From: Carcharhinus amblyrhynchos
Taxonomy: Eukaryota
DNA: 64,000 bases
Reading direction: 5' to 3'
NCBI GenBank assembly: GCA_965287045.1
Contig: OZ336878.1
Coordinates: 104,966,001-105,030,000 of the forward strand
Shown in pieces: positions 22,627 through 64,000 of this stretch. The notes under the pieces were generated by a model. The model searched no databases. It saw only the letters and a list, made by a program, of their open reading frames with translations, and had not been told where the DNA came from. The stretch's first letter is position 1. Every line of letters starts with the position of its first letter. The position numbers and the translations under genes are program-made.

Positions 22627-23272
22627 TGGTTTCGGACAACAAATTTTATGAAATTGGGCACACAAAATGGAAGCAAATTAAACTATCCTCAGAGACCTCC
22701 ACTAAAATCACGAAGTAACAGACACTGATCAGTAGGCAAGAGCATGCTTTTAGAATGCGAATGAGGGCAAGCACATAAGGGAAATTGGACAGGATGATAC
22801 CTACAAGAACAAAATTAAAGAACACATCCCCACCCCATTAAAATCAGCACTTCTAAACCAGTCAAACAACCCATGGAGACATCTAAAATTAACATAGTTA
22901 TGGAAACGTCCCTGGCTCCTCAAACCTCTTTGAGATCAATAACATACCTACGGTTCAAACCCCAGAGATTCTAGACCATTGATAACCAACCAGATAAAAG
23001 CGGTTAACACATACTTAAAACAATTGATCCAACACTCGAAAACATCGAAACAGGATGGTTGAAGTCAAATACTGTAAATAAAGGATTAGCATTTGAAACG
23101 CGAAGTTCAGGTATAACTGTAGCCCGTTGTGGGGGAGTCTTTAGAGCACTTTCAGGACAGTCGGATTGTATGTCCGGGACTGCTTCTCCGTCGACGTAAA
23201 TAAAATAAAGCTTTGCCGTTATTGAACTTCATCCTGAGTCCGTAGTGGTCGTTTCGCCCACTCGCGCTAACA
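22627..23272 (+). mobile_element. Solo LTR of the same family as the provirus at the window end
   Basis: TG...CA termini, 4-bp target-site duplication ATTT (22623-22626 and 23273-23276), TATA-like gtataa ~23112, AATAAA ~23200. Aligns end to end with the reverse complement of 59955-60614. Confidence 0.92.
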
Positions 23273-59954: not shown

Positions 59955-60614
59955 TGTTAGGGCGAGTGCGCGAAACGACCACTCCAGACTCAGGGTGAAG
60001 TTCAATACCGGCACAGCTTTATTTTCTTTTACGTCGACGGAGAAGCGCAGTCAGGACATAAAATCGGACTGTCCTGAAAGCGCTCTAACGGTCCCTCGCA
60101 GCGGGCTATAGTTATACCAGAACTTCGGTGTAATATGCCATTCAAATGCTAATACTTTATTTACAGTACTCGACCTTAGGCATCCTGTCTTGATGTTTTC
60201 AAGTGTAGGGGAAATTGTTTTAAGTGTGTGTTAATCGTTTTGTCTGATTGGTTGTTAATGGTCGAGAACCTCTGAGGTTTGAACCATAGGTGTCTCATTG
60301 ATCTCAAAAGAGATTTGAGAGGCCAGGGGCGTTTCTCTAGCTATGCTAATTTGAGGTGTCTCCATGGGTTGTTTGACAGTTTTAGAAGTGCTGATTTTGA
60401 TGGGGTGGGGATTTTTTTTTTAATTTAGTTCCTGAAGGTGCCATCCTGTCCAGCTTCCCTTGTGTGCTAGCCCTCATTTGCATTCTAAAAGCATGCTCTT
60501 GCCTGCTACTCTGTGTCTGTTACTTTGTGATTTTTAGTGGCGGGGCACTGAACGTATCTTTAGTCTGCTTCCATATTGTGTGCCCAATTTTATACAATTT
60601 GTTGTCCGATAAAA
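59955..60614 (-). mobile_element. 3' LTR of an endogenous retrovirus-like element
   Basis: Homologous to the solo LTR, ends in CA on -, and is preceded on - by the polypurine tract AGGGGGGAA (~60616-60624). Confidence 0.92.
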
Positions 60615-60743
60615 GTTCCCCCCTGTCGGACGGGACCGGACTTTTTCCACCTCCTTCAGACCAATTTTCATAACAAATTTTATGTCCGGTGCTCCCTGCA
60701 TTTGCACGCTGCAGTCGTACAGTCTAGGGGAGCCCCGGGTTTG

Positions 60744-62915
60744 TCAAATTAGGTGTATGCGGGAGAAGTCTTCCCGATTTGTTAATTGTCCCATATTGCC
60801 AATCATTCTGCTTAGTTCCCTCCTAGGTTTAGTTTTCTTGCGCTGGCGGCATGTATAGCACATTATGACACCCCCGGATATTGCCAGTATGAGTTGGATG
60901 GCAACCAGTAGGTGCGAGATTATCCGGATCCAAGGGTCAATGTCTACATTTAGACTCCAGTCCCACACCCTCTGGACCCATGTCTGGCTCTGTAAGGCTG
61001 ACTCTGTGTCATGCTCGAGGGTCTTGATATGTGATTGTAACTGGTGGTATAATCGAACAGAGTGTCCCACCTTGAGACGGAGCCCTTTCAGTACTTCTGC
61101 TAAGTGTGGGATCGGAGCCTGTTCTGGCCCTCGGTAATATTTAAGGTTATCTCTCAGTGGGTCCGTTGCATTAAGTGTTAGGGTCTGTCTACTTCGAATG
61201 TTCGTGATGTGGACATGGCCAATAGTGACCGTTCTGCGAGGGATGAAGCAGAAGTTTGGGCTGGGGATCGGGCAAGTCAGCCCGTTGTATACGAAAGATG
61301 TTTCTGTTGTGGCTAGTCAATACCTGCCTCGTCCTCCATACCCTGCCCGGACAGAGTGTGGATCTGTGGGTGTAATTTCTAGGGTACAGCCCTGCGTTTT
61401 ATTAAACCCGCATTCAGCTGTCTGTCCTTGTCTCAGTGGGTGAGGGAAAATGGTTATCTCTCCCCTTTGTTTGCATCCCGAGAGGGAGGTTCTGAACATC
61501 ACGCCATGCCTTGAGATGGCCGTGACTTCGGTTAGGTGGTAGCGGGGGGAGTTATTGCCTATAACAGCACTGATGTTTTCAATATGGAAGATAGGGAATG
61601 GTCCCGAGTCTGCTGTAATTATCGGAATCAATAGGACCATCCCTACTCCCGTACTCTCGCGAACCTAGCAGTCGGGGATCACTGGATATACCCGAGTCAT
61701 TCCTTTCAACGTTTGGTTATACAGCGCCTCCTTCTGATCTGCGAGTTGCGCTAGCCGGGTGCTGTCAATCCAATCGGGGACCCCACCCCCCTCCCCACGC
61801 CCTGTGTACCTGGTCAAAATTATGTCTTAATTGGCCTATCATCCACTGACCGTACACATGGTACAGCTGTCCCTGTTGTACACGGACAGTTGTCTCTCTC
61901 CCGATCTATGAGGCGGTTAATAGTACGGGCGTGTGTTTCTAATATTGTGACTCCATCTAGTTGAGTATGGGCACCCCTCTCCCCTAAAAGAGCCTGTTCG
62001 GCTTGTTGGGCTAGTGACCGTTGCAAGACATCTTTCATCACTCCCCTTAACTGTTCTTTCTTATTATTGAGGCCCTGCATGTCAATTGAGTTAACCACGC
62101 TGGATCAGGTGTTTATTCCTGTGAGGATGTGATTGACTATGCCATATTTCCTTCTGCGTGTGCGTTGTCTCTGTAGGGTGCTGCTTCCATCGCATCGATA
62201 GCCCGCTTTATAGTTTCTCGGCCCAGCGTTCAGTACGTGCCTCGTGTCTGTTCTGAACAGTATCCCGGCACCTGGATCCCCGAGATATTGATCAGAACAG
62301 GCACGATTTCGTGTTTCACGTTGTCATATACAAATTTTCCCTCGTTCCACAGTCCTCCCCCCGCCCCCCCCCCCCCCCCCCCACCACCACCACCCCCCCC
62401 CCCCCCACCCCCCGCTCAACAAGCGGCAGGGTAAGACTTCGACTGTCGTGGTCGTGGGGGCACGCGTCCATAGTGCCCACAAATATCAGTGTCCGATTTC
62501 AAAAAGTCTTTTTGTGGCGGTGCTCGCGGGCCTTCGGGAAGGGCGCAAATAGTTCCGATGGTGTAGCCAGAGTCGATCAGCGAGTCTGGCCGTTGGATAC
62601 ACGCTCGGATCTTACCCATTGTGCAAGTGAAGCAGATCACATCGATACCCGGGTGGACTTGTAGCCATGAATTGGAATACATTCTGTTGTTCTCGGGGAA
62701 CGGTGCAGCCGGTGCGCACAACGCCTCGGACGTATTGAATATTATTCCATGGGATTGTTGATAGGTAGTATGCCCCTGGAAGGCGACCCTTGACAAGAAG
62801 ATCATGGATAGGGCCTACCTCAATGTGGTTAGCATTATCCCGGAGAGGGGTAGGAAGGGTACACGAAGCCTGGTGGCCGCCAGGTATTAAAATCTTAGTA
62901 TTAACTAATTTCTAT
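60744..62915 (-). pseudogene. env: Disrupted envelope gene with F-type class I fusion protein organisation
   Basis: F2-like VYDNVKHEIVPVLINIS..PGYC; basic cleavage site RQRTRRRK then GIVNHILTG; heptad region; Cys-rich segment (SLSGCKQRG..ECGFNKTQGCTLE..CPIPSPNFCFIP); Trp-rich membrane-proximal region; TM (IISHLLVAIQLILAISGGVIMCY) and tail. Several stops and frameshifts. Confidence 0.8.
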
Positions 62916-63142
62916 TAAATAACCTACTTAGGCATGCCTCTACATCTATATACACATATACACACATTAGAGCCATGGCCCTCCTCCGTCCTAGAAATGA
63001 AGGTTGTGGATCCGCTGTGTGGATAGAGGTGGTTAGTTATGGGTCGATACTTGGCCCGTTTACGTCGACGGGCTATTCTTGTCCTAACAGTCGGTCTGTC
63101 CTGTACCCCCTCCACCCCCCACCCCGCCCCCGCCCCTGAGTG

Positions 63143-63427
63143 TTATGCCTTTAACTGTGACCAGTGTTTCCAGCGGCCTTTCCCTTTGATGTCAACGCAG
63201 GCACATGTGTCTCTGGTGAGCATAATCTCACGGGGTCCTACCCATTTCGGTGCGAACCCTGTTTGGTCAGGGGCAACTCGGATTAAAACCTTGTCCCCTA
63301 ATTGGGGAAGTGTGGTGGTGTGACAGATGTCATGTTTCTTAACCTGGTCTCTTATAGCTTGTTGATCTCTGGTTGCGTGATGTAGCTCTCTGAGTTGGTG
63401 GTCTAACTGTTGTACATTTCTTTTCAT
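63143..63427 (-). pseudogene. pol: Integrase C-terminal (GPY/F-like) domain of pol
   Basis: PQLGDKVLIR...FAPKWVGP.EI.LT.DT...WKHWSQLK. Confidence 0.85.
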
Positions 63428-63499
63428 TTTATCCTGGGGGTGGCGGGGGGGGCACCGTCGTAATTTTTAAAATCTGATACTTTGGACCAGTTTGATTAC

Positions 63500-64000
63500 T
63501 CCAATGTCTTACCCCAGTTCCCTTATTTGCAAGATGGACAATTGGGTGATGCGTCGAGTGGACGGACAAAGCTATTTACAATCTCGACTGTGATGTCCTG
63601 ATTCTTCCTTAGTGAAGGCAAACTACGCCTACGTGGGCGGGCTTTGACTGCAGGTACATTTTTTGGTAGTGAGCGCCGGGTCAAACGGTTCTGGGAGTCC
63701 CGGTACCAGGAGCCCCATAGGGGGTAAGATTTGCGGGGTTTCCCATCTTTTTCGTCGGCGCCTCCTGACCGTGGTTTTATTCCTGAAGGTCTGTAAATTG
63801 GGCAGGAGACGTAGGTTCATGTGCTGGTTCTGGGGTAAGTGGGTGGGGGTTGTAGCTGCTTGTTTCGCCGGCCCTTCGAAAGGCATGGGTTGGGGTCCAT
63901 CGTCAGGGAATTGCTGAGATATTCGTGTAGGGTAGGAGCGTGGTACCTACAGTTCCTTGCAAAATGGTTGGGTTGCCCGCAGGTATGACACTGTACTTGT
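63500..64000 (-). pseudogene. gag: 3' end of gag with a degenerate CCHC zinc knuckle; continues beyond the window
   Basis: Pro-rich/basic segment, then VCLH*GR/GHHSRDC (63578-63620, one frameshift). Confidence 0.6.

Follow-up and report, generated by a model that had tools for sequence, protein, structure and literature searches.

Lokiretroviruses, which are defined by their reverse transcriptase (RT), carry an F-like Env; none of the three chondrichthyan genomes surveyed for them was positive and four scenarios for the origin of Env were left open (PMC7947760). Foamy virus Env has an F core and was assigned to class Ib, orthoretroviral Env being placed in class Ia (PMC11468914). The Env proteins of walleye dermal sarcoma virus (WDSV) and walleye epidermal hyperplasia virus (WEHV) are distinct and not of the gamma type, and the ancestor of the epsilonretroviruses was inferred to have had a gamma-type Env (PMC9967133); elsewhere the epsilon Env was left unclassified and unmodelled (10.1101/2021.11.05.467493). 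In PMC12583693, Metaviridae are the only reverse-transcribing clade named and more are expected in Retroviridae. From sharks, endogenous retroviruses (ERVs) similar to snakehead retrovirus (SnRV) and to epsilonretroviruses have been reported (PMC4422223). Here we describe a provirus with an F-like env in Carcharhinus amblyrhynchos. It lies at one end of a 64,000-nucleotide stretch (contig OZ336878.1, positions 104,966,001 to 105,030,000; "the window" is this whole stretch), which holds the 3' 4 kb of the element on its minus strand.

The provirus is dead, and an internal deletion has removed most of its pol. It is one of many copies of an endogenous retrovirus that we call family A; family B is a second ERV family of the same genome. 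Our reading, to which we give a probability of about 0.6, is that the pol of family A likely branches on the stem of the class I retroviruses and that its predicted F-type env likely stems from a deeper-branching retrovirus. Family A would then combine a pol from the class I stem with an F-type env related to that of foamy viruses. It is not a lokiretrovirus and is probably not the product of an independent capture from an RNA virus.

The env in the window is broken: its frame changes at least three times, and it is interrupted by several stops. Folding was done on a natural shark homologue, P0001 (714 aa), which is 67-72% identical to it after the cleavage site. P0001 has the cleavage motif RSKR at residues 249-252, a transmembrane (TM) segment near 655-680 and a post-cleavage subunit of 462 aa, in line with the approximately 450 codons given in an earlier note on this DNA. 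The note had also described a short, F2-like segment with a single Cys. In P0001, however, about 220 aa lie between the predicted signal peptide and the cleavage site; of the 10 Cys among them, eight belong to an additional N-terminal domain with a length of about 125 aa. The polybasic site that the note saw in the window is a run of basic residues where the frame changes; in other copies the sequence here is RSKR/GIVN. It was right that the motifs of gamma-type Env are absent: neither CX6CC nor a motif like the immunosuppressive domain (ISD; CKS-17) was found in the P0001 env.

In the window, the F1-like post-cleavage subunit (60744..62150, minus strand), assigned by tblastn to P0001 and by the fold of the latter, consists of the fusion-peptide region, heptad region A (HRA), beta-rich domains with conserved Cys, heptad region B (HRB), the TM segment and a tail. 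The pre-cleavage part (62150..62850, minus strand) is broken and has a poly-C/G expansion near 62355-62415; it encodes the predicted signal peptide, the Cys-rich N-terminal domain, a Thr/Pro linker and an F2-like strand and helix.

Structure prediction agrees with the F-like env proposed earlier. In a Foldseek search of the PDB, the best matches of the P0001 model were the F proteins of respiratory syncytial virus (RSV; E 1.6e-10), human parainfluenza virus 3 (hPIV3) and henipaviruses, and all of the 41 PDB matches listed were paramyxo- or pneumovirus F. In VIA, postfusion Langya virus F was matched with a Z score of 11.4 (rmsd 7.7, 333 aligned residues, model residues 174-612) and foamy Env with 8.2 (rmsd 7.2, 272 aligned). 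The F alignment crosses the cleavage site, so that in the predicted model both subunits contribute to a nested F core. In BFVD, lispivirus and fish-filovirus glycoproteins rank at the top; WDSV Env at rank 4 (E 1.7e-11) and WEHV1 Env at rank 6 (5.6e-11) are the best retroviral matches of the model, and feline foamy Env appears at rank 45. The entries A4GTG3, Q9WHI8 and A0A2P1GML9, i. e. WDSV and WEHV1 Env and a fish-filovirus glycoprotein, are strong matches to this F-type model. With whole P0001 the Atlas search returned F/Baculo_F clusters at 0.91-0.93 with low recognition (1607), which is a lead only. The N-terminal domain modelled alone gave no confident fold (pLDDT 33), and the Atlas search had no usable match for it. 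From these models the env of family A is predicted to be an F-type fusogen.

The closest named homologues of the env are from Mustelus, Chiloscyllium, Heterodontus and Pristiophorus, and in the env tree (rows under 200 aa excluded) its clade covers four shark genera. When 1.84 billion proteins were searched with an env profile, 52 hits were obtained; the sources of the 10 hits looked up include sharks, the frogs Pelodytes, Mantella and Xenopus, and coelacanth. Pfam found no fusion-protein family, PF00523 included, in the env fragments of the window and its copies or in 41 family members; the chimeric hit P0142 matched Baculo_F below the cut-off (E 0.0011). A PF00523 search of the shark's own genome had 0 hits, and as the control also gave 0 it is uninformative. 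TLV_coat had no match in the family A env, the env of the epsilon-like L082 serving as the control (E 2.2e-11). The env therefore belongs to a family of sharks, frogs and coelacanth that Pfam does not cover. The profile of the 41 sequences (A5) matched three foamy Env proteins in the PDB (E 5.7e-6, 1.2e-4 and 1.3e-3; next match 0.44) over the post-cleavage beta/Cys region, with matching Cys spacing; paramyxovirus F was not detected in the PDB (measles F, E 0.75). A word-based search with A5 returned 19 proteins, 17 of them named from sharks, and no lokiretrovirus or WDSV Env.

The earlier note had set an F-like env against one that best matches epsilon or foamy Env. Matches of the latter kind were found, yet the F-like reading stands because those Envs themselves have the F fold.

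Relatives of the env bear other N-terminal modules on the same core, which suggests that the attachment domain is modular. Bamboo shark and frog envs (P0107, P0119, P0121 and P0123) have a different module before the F core; it is labelled Ig-like in the source of P0107 and resembles a V-set domain in P0119 (E 0.045). A cluster of Mantella envs has 16 members, most of them 677 aa long. The ERV-L-like element L081 has a 635-aa env without a Pfam match; as it matches the family solely around the cleavage site (hhalign probability 23%), it was not counted as a member.

For the placement of pol, 83 Pol hits were collected, and 63, 33 and 30 rows were used in three trees; 20 near-duplicate or partial rows were dropped from the first and more from the two later ones. 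Foamy viruses, class II and WDSV are not represented in the trees, the epsilon rows are labelled by motif only, and there are long branches near the root. Eel rows (P0083, P0089 and P0091) were labelled as lokiretroviral by a motif shared with Loki-Aro, and P0042 was labelled as SnRV Pol by three shared motifs, both according to the supplement alignments of PMC7947760. The integrase (IN) tree excluded rows with fewer than 150 aligned residues and contains one lokiretrovirus row (P0091).

RT plus tether of family A scored 216-220 bits with murine leukaemia virus (MLV), 124 with foamy virus and 91 with Ty3. In the RT tree family A and shark and minnow elements form a clade that unites with the epsilon-like and gamma rows, leaving SnRV outside (support 98/97-98/98). 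Within this epsilon/gamma group the RT of family A is on the most basal branch, below all sampled epsilon and gamma rows. We conclude that the pol of family A likely branches on the stem of the class I retroviruses. In Chiloscyllium the open reading frame (ORF) P0006 fuses the same IN C-terminus to the same env; the pairing of this pol with this env is therefore old.

To judge by the motif-labelled epsilon-like and gamma rows, family A probably shares an RT clade with the epsilonretroviruses WDSV/WEHV1 and with class I (clade Mu) ERVs. With class I ERVs (clades Mu and Jin) it has in common a single frame for gag and pol and a 4-bp target-site duplication (TSD). The latter also holds for foamy viruses. 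A weak MLVIN_C-type IN tail and a presumably MLV-type primer binding site (PBS) add to this likeness. It is in Env that family A departs from its class I neighbours. Its Env has about 700 aa compared with 1159-1317 aa in WDSV/WEHV1, at 12-13% identity; and unlike gamma-type Env it has no ISD, CX6CC or TLV_coat and a long post-cleavage subunit, whereas the gamma TM ectodomain is short. The Envs of family A and foamy virus share the F core and homology at the profile level (class Ib; PMC11468914), although family A Env lacks the long cytoplasmic leader peptide and has its extra domain at the N-terminus and not as a receptor-binding domain inside the surface subunit. RT plus tether of family A is nearer to MLV than to foamy virus, and its gag has CCHC knuckles. 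Foamy gag is not known to carry them.

Several results weigh against the reading that we prefer. The fusion-peptide region of P0001 is only mildly hydrophobic (mean Kyte-Doolittle value 0.39). The AlphaFold model of P0001 reaches moderate quality (pLDDT 66.6, pTM 0.38), and its TM-scores are low. The narrow 11-sequence profile A3 and single sequences matched nothing in the PDB, i. e. the foamy match needs the broad A5. With the RT polymerase core alone MLV and foamy virus tie (146-151 and 145-150 bits), and the row composition of the RT trees given above counts here as well. Moreover, a grouping of family A with SnRV and P0020/21 was rejected weakly in the approximately unbiased (AU) test (p=0.03).

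This last point concerns the possibility that family A is a member of the snakehead retrovirus group (clade Huo, CmiERV lineage I; PMC4422223), which is a neighbouring deep RT branch with a shark-type host. The next lower branch of the RT tree is that of SnRV, family A and SnRV share the motif LDI(A/S)NGFWSI, and the IN tree does not settle the position of SnRV. Besides the weak rejection, in a comparison that did not include the CmiERV sequences, a broad basal group adding turtle and coelacanth rows to family A and SnRV was rejected clearly (AU p=1.6e-5), the union with the epsilon/gamma rows had 98/97 support, and no SnRV Env was named among the 50 BFVD matches listed (two of them without a name). 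Membership in this group is therefore improbable in our view. Still less can be said for a chondrichthyan lokiretrovirus, the kind of element that the earlier note had suggested. Lokiretroviruses resemble family A in their F-like Env with an RxKR site and a post-cleavage subunit of ~450 aa (PMC7947760), and a by-eye comparison with the supplement found a similar start of this subunit (GP.xG[IL]VL); dual RNase H (tether plus RH) is likewise present in both, as in all retroviruses. Nevertheless, placing family A with the lokiretroviral RTs was rejected (AU p=0.00025), the IN tree puts it outside the lokiretrovirus/CGIN1 group (95/95 and 98/97), and its RT reads TWTRLPQGF where lokiretroviruses have TWNRCPFGY or TWTVTPFGY. 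A lokiretroviral RT query found nothing in this genome closer than 41% identity among the 150 candidates scored out of 2215. Also the Env, compared by eye, differs by the extra N-terminal domain and by a fusion peptide less hydrophobic than the lokiretroviral FLGGL type. For pol, lokiretrovirus membership is thus refuted, barring dominant long-branch artefacts, and of all explanations considered we regard it as the least probable.

The origin of the env is a separate question. The sister RT lineage of family A (L074-L078; RT 53-59% identical) has a different env, and therefore at least one env exchange took place within this small clade. Its TM looks gamma-type in L076-L078, with an ISD-like stretch and a Cys loop in L077 and L078, and the env of L078 matches the Pfam Ebola-like HR1-HR2 (E 2.5e-4). 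Over 564 aa the env of family B and P0001 are 33% identical. The RT of family B, at 40% identity to that of family A, branches deeper and groups with coelacanth elements. Because these two values are so close, a transfer is favoured: family A likely obtained its env by recombination from a deeper-branching, family-B-like retrovirus, the direction of the swap being inferred. The same closeness speaks against the view that the F-type env was inherited vertically from a retroviral ancestor, the gamma-type env of the sister lineage being the replacement. Env normally diverges much faster than RT. Furthermore, WDSV Env is 13% identical in the structural comparison, although epsilon-like RTs are nearer to family A than family B is. 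What vertical descent has in its favour is the distribution of F-type Env, which is found in lokiretroviruses (PMC7947760), foamy viruses (PMC11468914), family B and family A and, by fold search, in WDSV/WEHV1, together with the reach of the env profile to foamy Env and the presence of the env clade in four shark genera. On balance we consider it unlikely, albeit less so than an affiliation with SnRV.

A direct, independent capture of F from an RNA virus akin to paramyxo- or pneumoviruses, the other origin considered in the earlier note, could explain why the best PDB structures are RSV, hPIV3 and henipavirus F and why lispivirus and fish-filovirus glycoproteins lead in BFVD. However, identity to all of these is 9-15%, PF00523 was found in 0 of 41 family members, the sequence profile reaches foamy Env and not F, and family B has the same type of env. 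Compared with paramyxo- and pneumovirus F, to which it is similar in fold at about 10% identity, the env is longer by the additional N-terminal domain and so likely provides for attachment itself, with no need of a separate H/G protein. We thus consider such a capture very improbable. The predicted likeness of the env in fold to measles-type F and foamy Env suggests that this entry protein is an old part likely swapped among retroviruses.

A possible, more general interpretation is that the Retroviridae started out with an F-type (class Ib) Env, which gamma-type Env replaced later. We hold this only tentatively, at somewhat less than even odds. If so, lokiretroviruses, foamy viruses, deep shark and coelacanth lineages, members of the class I stem and the walleye epsilonretroviruses would all have kept F-type Env, and the derivation of the epsilonretroviruses from an ancestor with gamma-type Env would be reversed. 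F-type Envs of sharks, frogs and coelacanth would then form a large family that has gone unrecognised, in which the N-terminal receptor-binding modules (Cys-rich, Ig-like and other) can be exchanged. Env surveys would miss this Pfam-less family because they were seeded with gamma- and beta-type queries, as in two screens with such or syncytin queries in fish, sharks and amphibians (10.1101/2021.11.23.469661 and 10.64898/2026.05.06.723177). Family A provides intermediate sequences for testing the four Env-origin scenarios of PMC7947760 and calls into question whether orthoretroviral (class Ia) and foamy (class Ib) Env should be separated as in PMC11468914. The structural matches of the walleye Envs offer a fold assignment for the unclassified epsilonretrovirus Env. 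In the literature consulted we found no statement that a class-I-stem or epsilon Env has the F fold.

The ancestral virus would have been primed by what is presumably tRNA-Pro and may have made its pol by readthrough of an in-frame stop between gag and pol. By analogy with paramyxovirus F and foamy Env, furin would cleave Env at RSKR and free the N-terminal peptide of the long subunit; HRA (about residues 252-366 of P0001) would then extend and HRB (about 596-647) fold back to form a six-helix bundle. The extra Cys-rich domain at the N-terminus is likely receptor-binding, again by analogy.

The window copy itself is a mosaic. It retains about 105 gag codons, scraps of the protease (PR)/RT junction, of RNase H (RH) and of IN, and the env. 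The gag 3' segment at 63539..64000 (minus strand), one part of the mosaic that stands in place of most of gag-pol, matches the 3' end of family B gag (L037, L038 and L051) at 82-85% identity, has no match in the three pol-containing family A copies compared and sits between remnants of the IN N- and C-termini. Its CCHC zinc knuckle (63946-63993, minus strand; Pfam zf-CCHC, E 4.9e-6), which had been taken for the element's own gag, is that of another family. The remnant ORF of the IN C-terminus lies at 63143..63466 on the minus strand (MLVIN_C, E 0.058, below the cut-off), and positions 62900-63440 are 84-86% identical in DNA to pol-containing copies of family A. Among 20 loci selected by env, eight contain the family-B-type gag segment and five contain RT. 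Hence this pol-less, gag-mosaic subfamily likely spread in trans with the enzymes of pol-containing relatives. The presence of family-B-type gag DNA inside a family A subfamily also means that both lineages recombine, which speaks for an env swap.

The identification as an LTR element holds: zinc knuckle, IN C-terminus, broken env, polypurine tract and 3' LTR were all located on the minus strand. The 3' LTR (59955..60614, minus strand; 660 bp) ends in TAACA and has an AATAAA at about 60018; the polypurine tract (60615..60626, minus strand), recognised from the sequence, adjoins it on the upstream side. The whole element measures about 8.9 kb, its 5' LTR lying 4.2-4.9 kb past the end of the window (L011, 8707-9356). 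The two LTRs are 91.5% identical over aligned bases, and LTR pairs of family A copies in general are 91.5-98.3% identical. A solo LTR of the same family is present at 22627..23272 on the plus strand, flanked by an ATTT duplication. Together with perfect 4-bp TSDs in six of the nine two-LTR copies with both ends located (11 examined), this bears out the 4-bp TSD noted before, even though the two sides of the window copy do not match. A PBS like TGGGGGCTCGTCCGGGAT, which we take to be of the tRNA-Pro or MLV type, occurs in 9/11 two-LTR copies of family A. A DNA search with env in the 2.92-Gb genome gave 53 matches (40 scored of 248 candidates). The full layout LTR-gag-pro-pol-env-LTR is seen in other copies. 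The pol-containing copy L018 has, according to Pfam, gag with two zf-CCHC, PR, RT, tether, RH, IN and env; gag and PR share one frame with a stop between them, and the copy carries further stops.

Family B was found at L037-L039, L042, L046, L047, L050, L051, L072, L073 and L083. Its LTRs are about 800 bp long, and in four copies the two LTRs show 98.5-99.9% identity; 4-bp TSDs were present in two of the three copies checked, and the PBS differs from that of family A. Its gag has a coiled coil and two CCHC knuckles, and its env is F-type. Many copies consist of gag and env only; in members that contain pol, the IN tail resembles SH3_Tf2-1.

Neither Rfam nor a tRNA scan had a match in the 64-kb window. 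Between 36000 and 59950 the window consists of 11-12 diverged tandem copies of a repeat about 1.6 kb long (60-80% identity). The provirus lies within one of these units, and past its 5' LTR the array resumes in register. Dozens of near-identical family A RT copies were found on C48, with clusters also on C13 and C16, which suggests that these copies expanded by segmental or tandem duplication.

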